Shown piece after piece: positions 11,697-50,826 of a stretch of 50,826 nt of DNA. How positions within the stretch are numbered: the first letter of the stretch is position 1; the number at the start of each line of letters is the position of its first letter. The translations under genes and the position numbers were made by a program. The DNA is from an uncultured Candidatus Saccharibacteria bacterium (GTDB taxonomy: Bacteria > Patescibacteriota > Minisyncoccia > UBA6257 > GWB1-50-10), in the NCBI GenBank assembly GCA_964639325.1, contig CAZXDO010000006.1:1-50826 (forward strand). Reading direction: 5' to 3'. The notes below the pieces were generated by a model. The model was not told where the DNA came from and did not search any database. It saw only the letters and a list, made by a program, of their open reading frames with translations.

Positions 11697-12707
11697 ATGT
11701 TTATTAGAAGAATAGGTATTGATCTTGGAACCACCAACACTCTTGTCTTTCTTCCCGATAAAGGGATTGTTATTAACGAACCAACCGCTGTAGCTATTAA
11801 AAAACCCGAAAATATAGTTTTGGCCGTGGGAGCTGAAGCAAAAGAAATGGTTGGCCGGACCCCAGAAAATATTGTTACCTATCGCCCGCTAAAAGAGGGT
11901 GTAATTGCTGATTATTATATCACCCAAAAAATGTTGAAATACTTTATTGGGAAGAGTGTTGGATCCTTTAATTTTTTCAGGCCCGATGTGGTTATTTCCG
12001 TCCCTGCGGGTATTACCTCTACTGAATTTAGGGCAGTTATGAACGCCGCTAAAGAAGCCGGCGCCAAAAATGTTTATTTAGTCAAGGAGCCCCTTCTCGC
12101 TGCCTTGGGGGCAGGTATTCCTATTCATTCCTCTGAAGGGAATATGATTGTTAATATTGGAGGAGGCACTACTGAAGTAGCGGTTATTTCTTTAGGAGGT
12201 ATTGTTGCCTGGTCCAGCCTAAGAGTTGCCGGAAACCTTTTTGATAAATCAATCACCGAATATATTAAAAAGAAGTATAATCTTGCTATAGGTGAATCAA
12301 CCGCTGAAAATATAAAAATAAATATAGGAACAGCTCTTAACGGCAAAGACGATATGGAAATGAAAATAAGAGGAAGGGATCTTGGAACAGGTCTTCCTAG
12401 GGATTTGGTAATAAATTCCAACGAAATTGCCGGAGCTATAAATTCCCACCTTGTTAATATAGTTAACGAAGTCCAGTCAGTTTTTAATGTTACGCCCCCT
12501 GAGTTAGCTGCGGATATTATGGAGAAAGGAATTATTCTTTCCGGAGGAAGTTCTCAACTTCGCAGAATTGACGAGTTTTTTAATCGTTCTTTAGGAGTTC
12601 CGACTTATCGAGCCGAACATCCCTTCTATTGTGTTTCTAAGGGTACTGCCACGATTTTAAGCCATCTTAATGTGTACCAACGCACTCTTTTGAACAAATA
12701 CTCCTAA
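11697..12707 (+). CDS. mreB: rod shape-determining actin homologue MreB (paralogue 1)
   Basis: [13 protein letters not shown]...VINEPTAVAI...VKEPLLAALGAGIP...NIGGGTTEVAVISLGG...SGGSSQL. Confidence 0.93.
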   Translation: MFIRRIGIDLGTTNTLVFLPDKGIVINEPTAVAIKKPENIVLAVGAEAKEMVGRTPENIVTYRPLKEGVIADYYITQKMLKYFIGKSVGSFNFFRPDVVISVPAGITSTEFRAVMNAAKEAGAKNVYLVKEPLLAALGAGIPIHSSEGNMIVNIGGGTTEVAVISLGGIVAWSSLRVAGNLFDKSITEYIKKKYNLAIGESTAENIKINIGTALNGKDDMEMKIRGRDLGTGLPRDLVINSNEIAGAINSHLVNIVNEVQSVFNVTPPELAADIMEKGIILSGGSSQLRRIDEFFNRSLGVPTYRAEHPFYCVSKGTATILSHLNVYQRTLLNKYS

Positions 12708-18524: not shown

Positions 18525-19541
18525 ATGTTTAAAAAAGTTTTAGGTATAGATTTAGGAACCGAAACAACTCAAATATATTTAAAAGGAAAGGGAATTGTTA
18601 TTGATGAGCCTTCTATTGTTGCCTTTAATAATAGGACGAATAGGGTAATTGCCGTTGGGAAAAAGGCTAGAGCTATGATTTCTCGAACCCCTTCCCACAT
18701 TACAGCCATGAGTCCCATAGCAAACGGAGTTATTGCTGATTTTGATATGGCTAAAGAAATGGTAAGAAAGTTTCTAAAAAATAAAAATATTCCTTGGTCT
18801 TTATTTACCGATGTTGTTGTTTCTGTTCCGACTAATCTTACGGAAGTTGAAAGAAAATCTGTTATAGATCTTTTGAAGGAAACAGGCGTTAATAATGTCT
18901 ATCTTTTAGAACAACCCTTAGCTGCTGCTTTTTCTATCCGTTTAAATATTTTTGAACCCACTGCTTATCTTATTTTAGACATTGGAGCCGGAACATCTGA
19001 TATGGCAATAATTTCCATGAATGGAATTGTTGTTTCTAAACGTCTAAAAATTGCCGGTAATTTTTTTGACAACGAAATAATAAAAGGAGTAAAAGATGAA
19101 TTGAAATTAAATATAGGCAAACCAACAGCCAAAGAAATAAAATTAGCTGTTGGATCGGCAATACCTAGAAAAGAAAAATTAGAAGTTACCGTTAGGGGAA
19201 GGGATGTTTTAAGTGGATTGCCCAGGGAGGTAGATATAAAGGACACTATGGTTAGATCCAAGCTTTCTCAACCATTAAAAGAAATAGTCAGCGCTCTTAA
19301 GGATCTTATTGAAATTACCCCTCCGGAGCTTGTAGGAGATATATATCACAATGGTATTTATGTCTGCGGAGGAGGAAGTATGTTAAGGGGTGTAGAAGAT
19401 CTGCTTAAAAAAGAAATAGGTGTTGATGTTCATGTTATAAATGAGCCTTTGACCTGCGTTGCACGCGGGTCCGGTGTTATTGCTGAAGAGTTTGATAAAT
19501 ATTCCCATCTTTTAACTGATGCCTCGTTAAAAGAAATTTAA
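18525..19541 (+). CDS. mreB: MreB/Mbl-like actin homologue (paralogue 2)
   Basis: LGIDLGTETTQIY...VIDEPSIVAF...LEQPLAAAF...DIGAGTSDMAIISMNG...CGGGSML. Directly precedes mreC. Confidence 0.9.
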   Translation: MFKKVLGIDLGTETTQIYLKGKGIVIDEPSIVAFNNRTNRVIAVGKKARAMISRTPSHITAMSPIANGVIADFDMAKEMVRKFLKNKNIPWSLFTDVVVSVPTNLTEVERKSVIDLLKETGVNNVYLLEQPLAAAFSIRLNIFEPTAYLILDIGAGTSDMAIISMNGIVVSKRLKIAGNFFDNEIIKGVKDELKLNIGKPTAKEIKLAVGSAIPRKEKLEVTVRGRDVLSGLPREVDIKDTMVRSKLSQPLKEIVSALKDLIEITPPELVGDIYHNGIYVCGGGSMLRGVEDLLKKEIGVDVHVINEPLTCVARGSGVIAEEFDKYSHLLTDASLKEI

Positions 19542-23244: not shown

Positions 23245-23510
23245 GCCCCCAGGATTTGAACTAGAATCAATTTAGCGAAAGCAATTTTGTTAATATTCAA
23301 GGCGCGAGGAGCGTGGGGTGTTAGATAACACGCGAGCGACGAGCAACGCAGAAGATAAACAAAATTGTTCCGCCCGAAGGGAAGCAAAATAATAAGCAAT
23401 TTCTTCGTTACTCCTCGTCAATGTATGCTCCGCATACACTTTCCTCGTCGTGTCTTGAAATTGCTTATTATTTTGCTTCTAAACTTAATTCTAGTTCAAA
23501 TCCTGGGGGC
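23245..23510. repeat. 266-bp element built from nested perfect inverted repeats (structured ncRNA or MITE-like element)
   Basis: Outer 23-bp IR 23245-23267 / 23488-23510. Inner 23-bp IR 23381-23403 / 23457-23479. 10-bp IR 23282-23291 / 23358-23367. Small hairpin 23423-23428 / 23432-23437. Confidence 0.85.
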
Positions 23511-23554
23511 GCTGTGTTATTATTGTTCTATAAATCTAATATATTTTAATAAAA

Positions 23555-34691: not shown

Positions 34692-34765
34692 GGGCACTTA
34701 GCTCAGCTGGCTAGAGCGCTGCCGTCACATGGCAGAGGTCACTGGTTCAAGCCCAGTAGTGCCCA
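34692..34765 (+). tRNA. tRNA-Val (anticodon CAC), no encoded CCA
   Basis: Hand-folded cloverleaf. Acceptor GGGCACT/AGTGCCC, D arm GCTC-AGCTGGCTA-GAGC, anticodon arm CTGCC-GTCACAT-GGCAG, T arm ACTGG-TTCAAGC-CCAGT, discriminator A. Confidence 0.9.
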
Positions 34766-34787
34766 CAAAATATTTCAAGGAATAATT

Positions 34788-34818: not shown

Positions 34819-34836
34819 TCGTCGTTTTACTCCTCC

Positions 34837-34904
34837 CCAGAAACCCTCGTTTTCTGGCGCTTCGCTGTTTTCCAACACGGGGAAAATACTCTTCCCCGAC
34901 CCCC
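34837..34904 (+). repeat. GC-rich two-hairpin repeat, element B
   Basis: H1 is CCAGAAA 34837-34843 / TTTCTGG 34851-34857. GCTTCGCT lies at 34859-34866. H2 is CGGGGAA 34878-34884 / TTCCCCG 34892-34898. CCCCGACCCC lies at 34894-34903. Same layout as 44659-44720. Confidence 0.75.
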
Positions 34905-35059
34905 TTTGTCGTTTAATAGCTTGGTGGTTATTTGCTAACTAATTCCTTTGTTATGTCTTCAGGAATAATGTTGTATTGTTAGAATTTCATATTAAACATT
35001 GTGGATAACTTATTTTTCTCCCATTAAGCTTGATCTAAGTTTTTTTCATTTTTGAAAAT

Positions 35060-38291: not shown

Positions 38292-39548
38292 ATGAACAAA
38301 AAAATTATATTAGGATTTATCATATTTATTCTCCTTTCAGGAGTTGTTCTTGCGGCTAGATTGTTTGTATTTCCTTACAATCCGAACCAACCGCCCCAAG
38401 CGGATGATTCCGGTTCAACAGAAGAGGGGATAAAAAGTGTTATTGAGGCAAATAATAATTTTGCTTTTGATGCGTATAAAAAAATAATTGAATCTGAAGA
38501 GGGTAATATTTTTTACTCTCCTTACAGCATATCTTCCGCTTTGGCAATGACTTATGAAGGAGCAGAAGGAGAGACGGCTGAAGAAATTAAATCAGTTTTC
38601 CATTTTCCCAACAAAAACAGTTTAAGGCCTAATTTTGCCGCCGTTTATAACAACATCAACGCCAAAGACAAAAATTATGAATTAAGCACGGGAAACGCTC
38701 TGTGGATTCAGCATGACTTTTCTTTGTTAAATAAGTACAGCAACAATATTGAAAACTATTATGGAGGTAAAGCAGCTCTTTTGGATTTTGTAAACGAACT
38801 TGAGCAATCAAGGCAAACTATAAATAGTTTTATAGAAGAACAAACCAGGGATAAAATTAAAGATTTAATTCCAGAAGGGTTACTAAATCAAGACACAAGG
38901 CTTGTTTTAACTAACGCAATTTATTTTAAAGGATTATGGAAAGTGGAATTTGATAAATCTGATACCCGCGAAGAAAACTTTAATATTAGTCCGTCTGAAA
39001 CAATAAAAGTGCCTATGATGAAAATGAAACCTGAAGAAGAAAAGTTTAATTATGCCAGAACAGAAGAATTGGAAATATTAGAGTTATCTTATAAAGATGA
39101 AAAAATTTCAATGTTAATATTATTACCAAATGAAAGTCTTGAAGATGTGGAATCTGATTTAACATTAGAAAAAATAAATGAATATAAATCTCAGATGAGA
39201 GAAACGGAATTAAGCTCAATATCAATTCCTAAATTTGAGTTTGATACAAAATATTTTATGAATGAAACCCTAGCTTCGTTAGGAATGCCTACGGCTTTTT
39301 CAAGCAACGCCGATTTTTCCGGAATAACCGGAAGAAAAGATTTGTTTATAAGCTCTGTTATTCATCAAGCTTATATTGGAGTTGATGAAAAAGGAACGGA
39401 AGCGGCTGCGGCAACTGCCGTAGTTATGGAGCTTGCTATGGCTCCAACAAACAATTTTAAAGCTGATCATCCTTTTGTCTTCATAATTCAAGATAAGGAA
39501 ACCGGCAATATTTTGTTTATGGGTAGAGTGGTAAACCCGTCAAATTAA
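38292..39548 (+). CDS. serpin-family serine protease inhibitor, membrane-anchored or secreted
   Basis: N-terminal hydrophobic helix. FYSPYSISSALAMTYEGAEGETAEEI, LTNAIYFKGLWK, hinge/RCL GTEAAAATAVVMELAMAP, FKADHPFVFIIQD. Confidence 0.9.
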   Translation: MNKKIILGFIIFILLSGVVLAARLFVFPYNPNQPPQADDSGSTEEGIKSVIEANNNFAFDAYKKIIESEEGNIFYSPYSISSALAMTYEGAEGETAEEIKSVFHFPNKNSLRPNFAAVYNNINAKDKNYELSTGNALWIQHDFSLLNKYSNNIENYYGGKAALLDFVNELEQSRQTINSFIEEQTRDKIKDLIPEGLLNQDTRLVLTNAIYFKGLWKVEFDKSDTREENFNISPSETIKVPMMKMKPEEEKFNYARTEELEILELSYKDEKISMLILLPNESLEDVESDLTLEKINEYKSQMRETELSSISIPKFEFDTKYFMNETLASLGMPTAFSSNADFSGITGRKDLFISSVIHQAYIGVDEKGTEAAAATAVVMELAMAPTNNFKADHPFVFIIQDKETGNILFMGRVVNPSN

Positions 39549-43317: not shown

Positions 43318-44619
43318 GTGAAATTATTTTTTATAAAAATTCTAAAAAAAATATTAAGAGGCTTAGCTAAAGCAACTCTTTCCCGTTATAAACCCAAAAT
43401 AGTTGGGGTCACGGGCAATGTTGGTAAAACATCAACTAAAATAGCCATTGAAGCTGTTCTTTCTCAAAAATTTAGAGTAAGGTCATCGGCTAAAAATTTT
43501 AATAATGAACTTGGTCTTCCTCTTTCTATATTAGGAAATTGGAAAAAAACAGGAAATTGGTTTTTTTGGCTTAAGGTTGTTATTTATGGTTTTTTTAGAA
43601 TTATTTTCAAAAATTCTTCATATCCGGAAATACTTGTTCTTGAGTATGGTGTAGATAAGCCCGGAGATATGAAATATCTTCTTAATATTGCCCGACCGCA
43701 AATAGGAGTAGTTACTGCGGTTGGAGAAATTCCGGTCCACGTTGAATTTTTTACCGGTAAAGAGCAACTTGCTAGAGAAAAAGCAATTTTAATAAATCAA
43801 CTTCCGGCTACCGGTTTTGTTTCTTTAAACGCTGATGATATTACTGTTTATGAAATGAAAAATCAAACCAGAGCCCAAATCATCACTTTCGGTTTTAGTG
43901 AAGAAGCCGATATTAAAATTACTTCTTTTGAAACTCTTTTTAATAAAAACTTAATCGGAGTTACTTTTAAATTAGGTTATGGAGGAAGTTTTATTCCTGT
44001 TCGTATTGAAAATGTTTTTGGAATATCTCAAGCTTATGCCGCTGCTTCAGCTGCTTCAATAGGCTTAATATTTGGAGTTAATCTTGTAAATATATCTGAG
44101 GCTCTTTCAAATTATTCTTCGCCATCAGGAAGGATGAAAATTATTCCCGGCATTAAAGAAAGTTATATTATTGATGATACTTATAACGCCGCTCCTTTAG
44201 CTACAGAAAATGCTCTTGAAACCTTAAAAGGGTTAGAGGCAAAGAGAAAAATAGCAGTCTTGGGTGACATGCTTGAAATTGGTAAATATACAATTGAAGC
44301 TCATACAAAAATAGGAAAGATTTCTGCAAAAACAGTTGATATTCTTATTACCGTTGGTATGCGGGGGAAAATAATTGCTGAATCGGCTCGTAAGGCCGGA
44401 ATACCAAAGAATAAGATTTATCATTTTAACAAGATTCAAGAAGCAGGTCTTTTTCTTCAAGATGAAATAAAAAAGGATGACGTTGTTCTTGTTAAAGCAT
44501 CTCAGGCAGCCCGTTTTGAGAAAATAGTAAAAGAAATTATGAATAACCCCGACGAAGCAAAAAATATTCTTGTTAGACAAAACAAGGAATGGTTAGAAAG
44601 AAAAGGAAGTTATGAATAA
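43318..44619 (+). CDS. murF: UDP-N-acetylmuramoyl-tripeptide--D-alanyl-D-alanine ligase
   Basis: GTG start. GVTGNVGKTSTK P-loop, DDTYNAAPLATENALETL, and VLGDMLEIGKYTIEAHTKIG typical of MurF. Confidence 0.8.
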   Translation: MKLFFIKILKKILRGLAKATLSRYKPKIVGVTGNVGKTSTKIAIEAVLSQKFRVRSSAKNFNNELGLPLSILGNWKKTGNWFFWLKVVIYGFFRIIFKNSSYPEILVLEYGVDKPGDMKYLLNIARPQIGVVTAVGEIPVHVEFFTGKEQLAREKAILINQLPATGFVSLNADDITVYEMKNQTRAQIITFGFSEEADIKITSFETLFNKNLIGVTFKLGYGGSFIPVRIENVFGISQAYAAASAASIGLIFGVNLVNISEALSNYSSPSGRMKIIPGIKESYIIDDTYNAAPLATENALETLKGLEAKRKIAVLGDMLEIGKYTIEAHTKIGKISAKTVDILITVGMRGKIIAESARKAGIPKNKIYHFNKIQEAGLFLQDEIKKDDVVLVKASQAARFEKIVKEIMNNPDEAKNILVRQNKEWLERKGSYE

Positions 44620-44740
44620 TTTGTGATCCCAACCGGATATTTCACGTCGCTTCGCTCCCTGAAACCCCTCGGTTTCAGTGCTTCCGCCACGGGAAACTTC
44701 CGTTTCCCGACCCCTTCCCCGGTTCAAATCCTGGGTTCAA
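44620..44740 (+). repeat. GC-rich two-hairpin repeat, element A, bounded by a duplicated tRNA-Glu 3' end
   Basis: TTTGTGATCCCAACCGGAT 44620-44638 matches 44776-44794 at 18 of 19 nt. H1 is CTGAAACC 44659-44666 / GGTTTCAG 44671-44678. H2 is CGGGAAAC 44690-44697 / GTTTCCCG 44702-44709. Then CCCGACCCC and GTTCAAATCCTGGG 44722-44735. Confidence 0.8.
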
Positions 44741-44749
44741 AATAAAACA

Positions 44750-44767
44750 ACCCGCCTGACAGCGGGT
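44750..44767. terminator. bidirectional terminator hairpin between murF and tRNA-Glu
   Basis: ACCCGC 44750-44755 pairs with GCGGGT 44762-44767. A T-rich tract follows it on both strands. Confidence 0.55.
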
Positions 44768-44779
44768 AATTTTATTTTG

Positions 44780-44852
44780 TGACCCCAACCGGATTTGAAC
44801 CGGTGTTTCTGCCGTGAGAGGGCAGCGTCCTAAACCACTAGACGATGGGGCC
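44780..44852 (-). tRNA. tRNA-Glu (anticodon CTC), no encoded CCA
   Basis: The reverse complement folds as follows. Acceptor GGCCCCA/TGGGGTC, D arm GTC-TAGTGGTTTAG-GAC, anticodon arm CTGCC-CTCTCAC-GGCAG, T arm ACCGG-TTCAAAT-CCGGT, discriminator A. Confidence 0.9.
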
Positions 44853-47707: not shown

Positions 47708-47758
47708 ACCCCGGTCACACGCACCCCATGCGTGCATACTGCCGTTGTACTACGGCCC
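47688..47758 (-). tRNA. tRNA-Pro (anticodon GGG), no encoded CCA
   Basis: The reverse complement folds as follows. Acceptor CGGGCCG/CGGCCCG (C1-G72), D arm GTAC-AACGGCA-GTAT, anticodon arm CACGC-ATGGGGT-GCGTG, T arm CGGGG-TTCAACT-CCCCG, discriminator A. Confidence 0.9.
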
Positions 47759-47951
47759 GGAGCGAAGCAGAAATGCAAAAACGTTAGTTTTTGAATTTCT
47801 GATGAGCGATCGAGACGCAAACTTTGTTTACGGCCCGAAGTGAGGGAAAAGTATAAACGAAGTTTATGTTTTTCACGAACGCCCGGAGACGCAAACTTTG
47901 TTTACGGCCCGGAGCGAAGCAGAAATGCAAAAACGTTAGTTTTTGAATTTC
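47750..47951. repeat. direct-repeat block upstream of tRNA-Pro, incorporating the tRNA 5' end
   Basis: An identical 50-mer lies at 47750-47799 and 47902-47951. An identical 26-mer lies at 47811-47836 and 47885-47910. TACGGCCCG (complement of tRNA positions 1-9) occurs three times. Confidence 0.9.
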
Positions 47952-47978
47952 TAATAAAAAACCAGTTTCCATTATAAT

Positions 47979-50148: not shown

Positions 50149-50403
50149 TTACTCACTTTTTGGTCTGGCTTCATCAACAGTTAAAGTTCTGCCGTTGAAT
50201 TCCTTTTTATTCCATTCTTCAACAGCTTTACTTCCTTCTTCATCAGAAGACATTTCTACAAAACCAAAACCTTTGGAACGTCCAGTCATTTTATCAGTAA
50301 TAATATTAGCTGATTCTACAGTACCGGAGTTAGAAAAAGCTTCTTTAAGCTCATCCTCAGTAGTTTCGTAAGGCAATCCGCCTACAAATAATCTTTTACT
50401 CAC
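50149..50403 (-). CDS. RRM-type RNA-binding protein
   Basis: RNP2 LFVGGL and RNP1 KGFGFVEM. 84 aa. Confidence 0.9.
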   Translation of the reverse strand: MSKRLFVGGLPYETTEDELKEAFSNSGTVESANIITDKMTGRSKGFGFVEMSSDEEGSKAVEEWNKKEFNGRTLTVDEARPKSE

Positions 50404-50536
50404 TATTTTATTGTGATTTATTTTTTGAGTTCTAGCTCGTGCAAGGCGACCTTCGGGTCTTAACCCTTATTTCGAACTTGAGCCGCCTAAAAACGAGACG
50501 GAAAGATTCGAACACACTTTTTCACGAACATCAGGA

Positions 50537-50565
50537 AGTATATTTTATTTATGCCTGTTTGTCAA
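50537..50565 (-). promoter_or_regulatory. candidate promoter of the RRM gene
   Basis: On the minus strand, TTGACA (50565-50560), 17-nt spacer, TATACT (50542-50537). Implies a 5' UTR of about 125 nt. Confidence 0.5.
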
Positions 50566-50621
50566 TATGTTTGTATTTACTATTGCGAAATAAAAAGAAT
50601 ATAGGTAAAGTAATAATTGAT

Positions 50622-50692
50622 TGCCGGGTCGTCTAACGGTAGGACGCCAGGTTTTGGTCCTGGTAACGAGGGTTCGATTCCTTCCCCGGCAG
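50622..50692 (+). tRNA. tRNA-Gln (anticodon TTG), no encoded CCA
   Basis: Acceptor TGCCGGG/CCCGGCA (U1-A72, typical of bacterial tRNA-Gln), D arm GTC-TAACGGTAG-GAC, anticodon arm CCAGG-TTTTGGT-CCTGG, T arm GAGGG-TTCGATT-CCTTC, discriminator G. Confidence 0.9.
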
Positions 50693-50826
50693 CACGAATG
50701 AAATGAGTGATGACGGGTATGGATTCAAACCATTTTGCCCCGTGTTGGAAAGTATCTAAACCCACGGGTTTTCAAAGTCAGGGGGTCGGGGCAAAATATG
50801 TGTTTATGTGAGATTCCTTCCCCGGC
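50693..50826 (+). repeat. GC-rich repeat, element C, ending in a second copy of the tRNA-Gln 3' end
   Basis: 11-bp stem 50732-50742 / 50787-50797. Contains CCCCGTGTTGGAA and GGGGGTCGGGG blocks. GATTCCTTCCCCGGC 50812-50826 repeats 50676-50690, and the window ends inside it. Confidence 0.8.

Follow-up and report, generated by a model that had tools for sequence, protein, structure and literature searches.

A 137-bp insert between repeats of a tRNA-Glu 3' end belongs to a family of small structured elements in Patescibacteria

Among described systems, those closest to the locus considered here are the integrative elements that target tRNA genes, whose tyrosine integrases reportedly leave repeats running from the T-loop to the tRNA's 3' end. 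The phage CTXphi is said to recombine with dif through XerCD by way of a folded hairpin of its single-stranded attP, and elements of the IS1634/IS1549 type reportedly make long direct repeats of variable length; gene-less forms that resemble cis-mobilizable elements (CIMEs) are included with the first group in the comparisons below. Here we describe a locus with likenesses to each of these systems in a 50,826-nt stretch of DNA from an uncultured Candidatus Saccharibacteria bacterium (contig CAZXDO010000006.1 of assembly GCA_964639325.1), referred to below as the window. Between the murF stop codon and tRNA-Glu, a 19-nt repeat is a target duplication that brackets a 137-bp non-coding insertion, and this insert is a member of a family of small structured elements in Patescibacteria that seemingly has not been described. 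The family and its anatomy are well supported, and it is probable that the element is, or once was, mobile.

An intact tRNA-Glu(ctc) gene (44779-44852, minus strand) is detected by ARAGORN and by Rfam (63.8 bits), and is 100% identical to the tRNA at L001, a related locus with a MurF protein 95% identical to that of the window (loci outside the window carry L numbers throughout). The last 16 nt of this working tRNA and its 3-nt trailer form the proximal direct repeat (44776-44794, minus strand). The distal copy, X' (44620-44638, minus strand), comprises the 3 nt of trailer, the 3' strands of the acceptor and the T-stem and the final 2 nt of the T-loop; a single G-to-A change lies in its acceptor part, and the copy directly abuts the murF stop codon (44617-44619, plus strand). 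The 19-mer, TTTGTGAYCCCAACCGGAT, has only these two sites in the window, with 18/19 identity between them, and a second copy arose in 0/100 shuffles, even with 3 mismatches permitted. Both the duplication and its position right behind the murF stop had been noticed in a sequence-only reading of the window, and both are confirmed. In a repeat search the 19-nt repeat lengthens to 22 nt at 91%, and similarity ends with this 19-22-nt repeat, so a simple tandem duplication was rejected. A second tRNA, a tRNA pseudogene and an intron-bearing tRNA were also rejected, as neither ARAGORN nor the Rfam tRNA model detects anything in 44620-44778, where only a partial T-arm/acceptor copy is present.

On the plus strand, the order of parts is murF stop codon, X', ATTTCAC-GTCGCTTCG, core, an inverted copy of the target (X), a terminator palindrome and the tRNA-Glu gene on the opposite strand. 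The left end of the insert, ATTTCAC-GTCGCTTCG (44639-44654, plus strand), forms a TCAC-GTCG junction that recurs at independent loci elsewhere (L009, L010, L013, L023 and L036). The conserved core (44655-44719, plus strand; 84.6 bits, E = 5.5e-21 with the covariance model R1) is built from two hairpins (hairpin 1, 44659-44678; hairpin 2, 44690-44709), the linker TGCTTCCGCCA between them and, last, the tail ACCCCTTCC, which contains the block CCCGACCCC (44706-44714). X (CCGGTTCAAATCCTGGGTTCA, 44719-44739, plus strand) is the T-arm and acceptor 3' strand of tRNA-Glu itself, sense-oriented on the opposite strand, and not a generic T-arm; 20/21 aligned bases match tRNA-Glu, with a 3-nt deletion. 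The palindrome that follows (44738-44779) is a bidirectional intrinsic terminator with its stem at 44750-44767, whose 18-nt arms are 89% complementary and flank a 6-nt tip, the left arm reaching into X and the right into the tRNA-Glu trailer. The two perfect 8-bp hairpins, the CCCGACCCC block, a T-arm-like GGTTCAAATCCTGG (44721-44734) and the bidirectional terminator had all been listed in the sequence-only reading and are all present. The 3' segment of the target is found three times, as the working tRNA, the inverted copy and the direct repeat, and the core lies exactly between the inverted pair. When the interval 44620-44778 is folded as RNA (z = -5.0 and -5.5 against shuffles, one value per strand), X' pairs with X and encloses both hairpins; with DNA parameters both hairpins are retained and the X'/X closing stem is absent.

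Other copies of the core extend this anatomy to a family. The window has four occurrences of the block CCCGACCCC, where 0.04 would be expected, and three of the four lie beside tRNAs (Val, Glu and Gln). The modules at tRNA-Val and tRNA-Glu have two hairpins and linkers in common, and a strict core pattern derived from these two copies, with 2 matches in the window (0 expected), is found at 39 loci among the GTDB species representatives, where about 0.5 chance matches are estimated. Nearly all of the 39 loci are labelled Patescibacteria (Jorgensen-, Colwell-, Uhr- and Paceibacteria, Parcubacteria and others), and the core is present in about 40 independent metagenome-assembled genomes (MAGs); among MurF homologues, that of the window groups with Jorgensenbacteria-like Patescibacteria, and its exact protein sequence has no entry in the assembly collection. 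L021, a GC-rich alphaproteobacterial locus missed by the covariance model, is probably a chance match. R1 itself retrieves 50 copies at E < 1e-3, in the window and at 44 loci. The core measures about 65 nt, and whole elements of about 110-180 bp are gene-free, with no genes between the repeats at any locus. The family has invariant C-rich linkers, (U)UUCCGCCA and ACCCCUUCC, which from copy to copy are, like the loop of hairpin 1, almost without change; at the ends of the inserts only GTCG...CGAC is common to the copies. L001 and L038 score equally (88.6 bits) and have the same 60-nt core. A long core form is present at both L010 (Glu) and L040 (Gln), while the window Glu copy has the short form; as L010 and L040 come from one Colwellbacteria genome, this implies spread within lineages.

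No Rfam 15 family covers the core: the matches above threshold in the window are tRNAs only, the core at 18 other loci is covered by no family, and permissive scans of the Glu module and of L022 gave nothing credible. A known small RNA or ribozyme was rejected on these grounds, the permissive matches being weak and implausible, such as plant microRNA models on the long palindrome. A full-text search of the literature found no description of the element. Its occurrence beside many tRNAs in many patescibacterial genomes, with direct repeats and an empty site, agrees with the proposal of the sequence-only reading that this is a miniature tRNA-targeting element that makes long target duplications.

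The second strong member in the window (34833-34908, plus strand; 63.4 bits) has the long core form and is separated by 66 nt from tRNA-Val (34692-34766), which lies upstream of it on the same strand; its possible flanking repeats, AGGAATAAT in direct and AAGGAAT/ATTCCTT in inverted orientation, are weak. Facing tRNA-Gln (50622-50693, plus strand) is a diverged, partly rearranged member (50704-50779, minus strand; 12.3 bits, E = 0.15), in which the T-arm and acceptor of tRNA-Gln seem, by eye, to have a diverged copy in inverted orientation, GGTTTGAATCCATACCCGTCA (50711-50731, minus strand). The 14-mer TTTCCAACACGGGG is exact in both the tRNA-Gln and tRNA-Val copies (2 matches against 0.02 expected). 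The 3' end of tRNA-Gln, GATTCCTTCCCCGGC, begins at 50676 and again at 50812 (proximal copy 50676-50690; distal copy 50812-50826, plus strand, reaching the window end); 1/100 shuffles reached 2 matches with 2 mismatches permitted. The distal copy is preceded by GTGA, the junction form of tRNA-Glu. The claim that tRNA-Gln shows the same arrangement with a 136-nt period is upheld in that the repeat and a diverged member in the same orientation were found, the second repeat copy being clipped by the end of the window.

The predicted structure of the core is accompanied by covariation. Across the 50 copies, in an alignment that was fitted to the structure and is hence biased in its favour, 92.9% of cells are paired, compared with at most 61% when the partners are slid; changes on both sides occur in 10/16 pairs, and the observed covariation score was reached by 0/500 shuffles. 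Compensatory variants of hairpin 1 can be read directly in the raw sequences (CUGAAACC/GGUUUCAG, CUAAAACC/GGUUUUAG, CCAAAACC/GGUUUUGG, UUGGAACC/GGUUCCAA and others), and one compensatory change in this hairpin sets the window apart from L001. The core pairs are almost all Watson-Crick, so that folding as DNA, or use of both strands, fits at least as well as a one-strand RNA. G-U pairs were discarded as a guide to the folding strand: the exceptions compatible with G-U number 17 cells on the core strand and 14 on the opposite strand, with no excess on either, and the count is in part an artefact of alignment register.

The association with tRNA genes is close and follows a constant plan. The cores of 27 copies face a tRNA whose 3' end lies 29-75 nt away on the other strand, and these tRNAs have 12 identities (Ala, Arg, Asn, Asp, Gln, Glu, His, Leu, Lys, Ser, Thr and Tyr). 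All 27 have an inverted copy of the T-loop, T-stem and acceptor of their own tRNA (8-21 nt, 83-100% identity) at most 5 nt past the core end, and all keep the order inverted copy, core, repeat. Exact direct repeats of at least 12 nt, and up to 55 nt, join the flank upstream of the core to sequence downstream of it in 27 of 48 copies, whereas shuffles gave none; among copies the repeat length varies from 10 to 55 nt. The right-hand copy of the repeat begins at the tRNA 3' end, and at some loci the repeat takes in the entire downstream terminator (41 nt at L017, 55 nt at L019). The usual target is the T-loop, at about positions 53-57, with the tRNA left intact and its 3' segment duplicated. Here the left junction has two recurring forms, ...GAAC/GTCG at about position 53 and ...AATC-TCAC/GTCG at about position 57; the junctions have a GT/AC microhomology in common and shift by a few nucleotides. 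Before the distal repeat stands the end of the core (CGAC or CGACGTGA) and not the T-stem's 5' strand. Read along its own strand, an element begins with the target, copied in reverse complement as far as the insertion point, followed by a variable hairpin or GC-rich leader, the core of about 65 nt, the inverted target copy over the insertion point, a short spacer (often a terminator) and the intact target.

The same plan is found at sites where no tRNA was detected, and there the repeats measure 26 nt (L037), 53 nt (L033), 29 nt (L027), 29 nt (L006) and 43 nt (L028). At L028 the repeat takes in the beginning of a gene (start codon and first codons, reading MEKITLHIEGMHC), and there, as at L037, the inverted copy crosses the insertion point. 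Exceptions in orientation are the window tRNA-Val copy and L026, in which the core lies downstream of the tRNA on the same strand. Around L008, 3/5 of the tRNAs within 8 kb have an element. A further motif, CGCT(T/C)CGCT, recurs in the left flanks of L039 and L044 and in class-2 cores (e.g. L010, L015 and L040); its places are a split T-loop copy (GGATTC-CGCTTCGCTA-GAACC), the leader before hairpin 1 and an expansion between hairpin 1 and the linker, and it also stands just 5' of the window tRNA-Pro (GCTTCGCTCC, 47759-47768, minus strand).

Relatives of the window provide an empty site. In L046, with a MurF 67% identical, and cleanly in the metagenome contig L048, the unduplicated junction reads murF-TAA-GA and continues into a minus-strand tRNA-Glu that differs from that of the window at a few bases, with no insert. 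The distal repeat of the window occupies the exact place of the tRNA-Glu end in these relatives, and X' is the former site of the tRNA-Glu 3' end. The module is also absent from L002, L003 and L047, which have tRNA-Glu on the plus strand. The tRNA stands right behind murF in both orientations, on the plus strand in L002 (5306-5379), L003 (5305-5377) and L047 (2125-2197) and on the minus strand in L046 (2933-3006) and the window, and its orientation at this junction changed during the evolution of the group. Integrase-driven inversions are reported in Thermococcales archaea (PMC5495485). The sequence-only reading had also remarked that the normal dcw gene order ends after murF. This is true, but it is unrelated to the element, since the order also halts there in relatives that lack it (L002-L004), and it is a trait of the lineage.

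Comparison of orthologous copies shows both turnover and retention. L001 has the insert together with an extra 29-nt partial tRNA-end copy and a different terminator stem; its identity to the window is 92% in the core, 91% in murF and 94% in the downstream DNA, and 65% in X and the terminator. The junction differs between the two (GAAC/GTCG in L001, TCAC/GTCG in the window), and the closing stem is not conserved. At L030, tRNA-Asn is followed by two identical tandem 182-bp units (1284-1720), each with terminator, inverted copy, core and 22-nt repeat; a further insert, unlike the first, stands at the same tRNA-Gln in L019, and an extra repeat is left over in L043. A third unit at L030 (2360-2580) lies 700 bp away, behind a 180-aa open reading frame (ORF) and beside a degenerate tRNA 3' remnant. 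Orthologous copies are found at tRNA-Asp in L008, L017, L025, L024 and L032, and at tRNA-Ala in L008 and L017. Here neighbouring proteins are 75-90% identical and the cores 84-98% identical, with 55% to 89% identity in the adjacent inverted copy and spacer; in the more diverged pairs the core is better conserved than the adjoining DNA. The persistence of orthologous copies across diverged genomes points to retention under constraint.

These features can be set against the described systems. With tRNA-targeting integrative elements and gene-less CIME-like forms, the element has in common direct repeats from the T-loop to the 3' end and trailer, a restored functional tRNA, tandem accretion at the same tRNA and empty sites in relatives. 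It differs from them in its size of about 110-180 bp, its lack of genes and of any integrase found, an inverted target copy beyond a conserved structured core, and the presence of that core at many different tRNAs and at non-tRNA sites; moreover, the distal repeat lacks the 5' T-stem half-site, and a complete core site was not found. The likeness to CTXphi-type integration lies in two inverted target-like sites about 90 nt apart that can fold into a stem imitating double-stranded target, in the order inverted site, loop, hybrid site retained at one junction, in imperfect pairing at the crossover, and in tandem arrays. Unlike CTXphi, the element targets the tRNA T-loop and a few other sites instead of dif, has no phage genes or replication functions, and combines a conserved loop with a variable, target-specific stem; no single-stranded form or recombinase was observed. 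MITEs (miniature inverted-repeat transposable elements), repetitive extragenic palindromic sequences (REP/REPIN) and Rickettsia palindromic elements are, like the present element, small, non-coding, multi-copy, hairpin-forming and intergenic, and are often terminators, but here the inverted repeats are derived from the target and specific to each locus and are not termini that the element encodes, long duplications of varying length (10-55 bp) take the place of short, fixed ones, and the tie to tRNA T-loops is strong. A classical MITE was rejected because the terminal repeats are not shared, differing per locus and matching the local tRNA, and because the duplication length varies (10-55 nt). 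The long duplications likewise argue against membership of the REP/REPIN sequences with RAYT or of the IS200/IS605-derived palindromes. Hairpins that favour neither strand, as here, would agree with recognition in the form of folded DNA. Elements of the IS1634/IS1549 type also make long target duplications of variable length, but they are 1.5-2 kb long, encode a DDE transposase and end in conserved terminal inverted repeats, and the present element has neither of these two features. A retroviral-type primer-binding site, complementary to a tRNA 3' end, was also considered and rejected, as the repeat contains genomic trailer, sometimes the whole terminator, and no added CCA end.

On balance, we favour the view that the tRNA-Glu insert is an inserted member of a family of mobile small elements that duplicate their target. 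Such an element would be non-autonomous and reliant on an enzyme encoded elsewhere. For the insertion step taken alone we can offer fold-back recombination only tentatively, and we hold it with clearly less confidence than mobility itself. Entry would take place at the T-loop, where the tRNA gene would recombine with a folded element whose stem is X'/X and whose loop is the core; a crossover at the base of the loop would then yield, in one step, the tRNA, spacer, inverted copy, core, direct repeat and old flank. This route, formally the one ascribed to CTXphi at dif, would also explain why pairing is imperfect at the centre of the T-loop, as well as the tandem arrays and the stability. As a side effect, the tRNA may acquire a terminator or insulator against the converging gene. 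A host function of this kind, or as a binding platform, is compatible with recombination and with the copy-choice route discussed below alike, and conservation in place suggests that there is one.

Several observations weigh against this view. The attachment site of a fold-back element must match its target beforehand, yet one core variant sits at different tRNAs with locally matching arms; since the arms match each local tRNA, re-templating at each insertion seems likely, and simple site-specific recombination would be insufficient. The 5' T-stem half-site expected beside a classical attR is missing at the distal repeat, the junctions of orthologues differ by a few nucleotides (L001 against the window), and the empty site comes from a lineage with just 67% MurF identity. 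Orthologous cores remain 84-92% identical where the neighbouring protein is about 75% identical, and this persistence argues for selection in place and a host function, not for selfish spread alone. The enzyme searches were also negative: no recombinase, transposase or reverse transcriptase was found by Pfam in the 40/56 ORFs of the window that were scanned, and no partner enzyme recurs near the copies, as ORF clustering over 47 loci gave only housekeeping genes in common. The core has 0 matches in 2.9 million viral contigs and in phage and plasmid collections, on which ground a phage or plasmid origin was rejected, and a free, circular or gene-carrying form of the element was not seen. Because no integrase was found, we keep the term "classic scar of site-specific integration", used in the sequence-only reading, as an interpretation of the locus. 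An HUH (Y1) transposase was also not found among the scanned ORFs. Large serine recombinases occur in 2 loci only, too few for a conclusion. L041 (3923-5650) has a large serine recombinase ORF of 569 aa that continues straight into a unit of inverted copy, core and repeat; this unit has a 16-nt inverted repeat, no direct repeat and no tRNA within 8 kb. L007 has a homologue of this recombinase 2.8 kb from its module.

A more speculative extension of the mobile-element view, which as a whole we consider doubtful, is that the family constitutes a new class of insertion element that rebuilds its arms from each target, so that the folded core of about 65 nt alone moves, entering the apex of a fold-back of the target's own sequence, usually the tRNA T-loop, while a putative enzyme duplicates the segment that it cuts and single-copy essential genes survive. 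If true, this would be target-templated insertion, a mechanism undescribed for prokaryotic mobile elements.

The same element may instead have entered by replicative copy-choice, a possibility that we take seriously without thinking it likely. The tRNA-sense strand would be nicked a little downstream of the tRNA, and the resulting 3' end would fold back and copy the 3' segment of the tRNA, giving the inverted copy and the terminator-like hairpin; synthesis would then jump to a DNA or RNA core template, return to the opposite strand at the T-loop and copy the 3' segment again, giving the direct repeat. The scheme is akin to target-primed synthesis with jumps between templates, or to microhomology-mediated break-induced replication (MMBIR). 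It predicts arms that match the local target at any tRNA and at non-tRNA sites, which it handles better than the fold-back route does, and it is consistent with repeats of 10 to 55 nt, with junctions that vary by a few nucleotides about the common GT/AC microhomology, with the inverted copies that cross the insertion point at L037 and L028, and with the nested long repeats without a core at tRNA-Pro (see below). In the window, the inverted copy continues unbroken into the snap-back palindrome with its 6-nt tip, and the inverted copy and terminator are hypervariable among close relatives (65% identity against 91-94% in the surroundings). At L030 and L022, however, the inverted copy is not continuous with a palindrome, and the high regularity of the insertion point, at T-loop positions 53-57 across 12 tRNA identities, looks specified by an enzyme and not driven by repair. 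The scanned ORFs contain no reverse transcriptase, as noted above, and a primase-polymerase was likewise not found in the window. We know of no prokaryotic element that works by such a route, and of no enzyme or precedent for it in prokaryotes.

Somewhat less probable still, in our estimation, is a module of tRNA loci encoded by the host, acting as an RNA or DNA structure, vertically inherited and not mobile, with a closing helix built by local duplication of the neighbouring tRNA end. It could terminate or insulate transcription, serve in processing or as an antisense element, or imitate the acceptor/T-arm minihelix of a tRNA. The core is near-invariant across distant lineages, as in L001 and L038, orthologous cores (84-98%) exceed their adjacent inverted copies and spacers (55% to 89%) in identity, and orthologues differ by compensatory changes, such as that in hairpin 1 of the window and L001. 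The frequency of elements around L008 (three of five tRNAs) would fit such a module; so would L026, and possibly the tRNA-Val copy, where the core lies behind a same-strand tRNA and co-transcription is conceivable, and L022 and L028, where the closing stem and a T-run resemble a terminator. Against these points, presence varies among relatives, tandem and nested copies exist, and non-tRNA sites carry copies with the same flanking repeats. The exceptions compatible with G-U show no strand bias, the closing stem of the window is not preserved in L001, promoter prediction gave none upstream of the window copy, and no Rfam family matches.

We regard it as very improbable that the repeats are decayed attL/attR scars of large integrated elements (prophages or integrative plasmids) with a deleted interior. 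Repeats from the T-loop to the 3' end are what tyrosine integrases at tRNA genes are said to leave, and the serine recombinase ORF at L041 leads directly into an inverted copy-core-repeat unit, but independent decay would not yield the same covarying 65-nt core at 50 places. Small size is the rule, as the core lies 29-75 nt from the tRNA in all 27 facing copies, with no genes between the repeats; the hairpins are compensated, the core is better conserved than the adjoining DNA, and it is absent from the viral, phage and plasmid collections searched. The suggestion of the sequence-only reading that such loci might be heavily decayed larger elements is accordingly not supported. Chance or an assembly artefact is a practically negligible explanation, for although repeats do break assemblies, and the related contig L051 ends inside the tRNA-Gln module, a second 19-mer copy arose in none of the 100 shuffles, the same locus structure is present in an independent Joint Genome Institute (JGI) assembly (L001), and the core is found in about 40 independent MAGs.

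The family places a conserved 65-nt structure by a sizeable share of tRNA genes in a huge and poorly understood radiation, where it is unannotated and absent from the RNA and repeat libraries searched. If the element is mobile, it shows that single-copy tRNA genes can be used as landing sites in tiny genomes without killing the host, and the target-derived arms hint at an undescribed mode of insertion. If it is domesticated, tRNA loci have in it a new component, which ends or insulates transcription or serves to bind a factor.

Other structures in the window and its relatives resemble these modules in part. Upstream of tRNA-Gln, a GC-rich stretch (50430-50535) contains tRNA-end-like fragments (GAGACGGAAAGATTCGAACAC), and a 12-mer, TTTTTCACGAAC, is common to this stretch and to the insert upstream of tRNA-Pro (47868-47880); the TTTCAC motif also occurs at the left junction of the Glu module. 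L051 (Logan SRR2986055), an independent assembly and the only contig that matched at the tRNA-Gln end of the window, is identical to 50403-50714 of the window and stops 20 nt beyond tRNA-Gln, within the module, and the module repeats probably fragment assemblies. At tRNA-Pro (47751-47955), the 5' end of the tRNA (TACGGCCCG, plus strand) is present three times inside nested long direct repeats of 53 nt spaced 152 nt and 46 nt spaced 74 nt, which enclose small hairpin-bearing inserts. These duplications look alike in kind, but they involve the tRNA 5' end and have no conserved core. In the gap between greA and lysS (23245-23511), a perfect 23-bp inverted repeat, GCCCCCAGGATTTGAACTAGAAT / ATTCTAGTTCAAATCCTGGGGGC, resembles a tRNA T-loop and acceptor end and encloses about 220 bp of structured non-coding DNA, including an internal stem of about 24 bp. 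There is no tRNA near this unit and it has no Rfam or core-model match; it may be a fold-back unit of another family with tRNA-derived arms.

An unrelated element of about 115 bp lies at the murF stop codon in L046 (2800-2925), L049 (1420-1540) and L050 and is absent from L048 (3060-3075). It has terminal inverted repeats TCCCGATAGTGTTA...TAACACTATCGGGA and an apparent TGAA duplication, and it alters the MurF C-terminus from ...SYE to ...SYESR (each followed by the stop); L047 has a related one. Elsewhere in the window, a full-length serpin gene (38292-39548; Pfam E = 1e-121) lies just upstream of the mraZ-murF cluster, and two MreB paralogues (11697-12707 and 18525-19541) are encoded in this small-genome organism.

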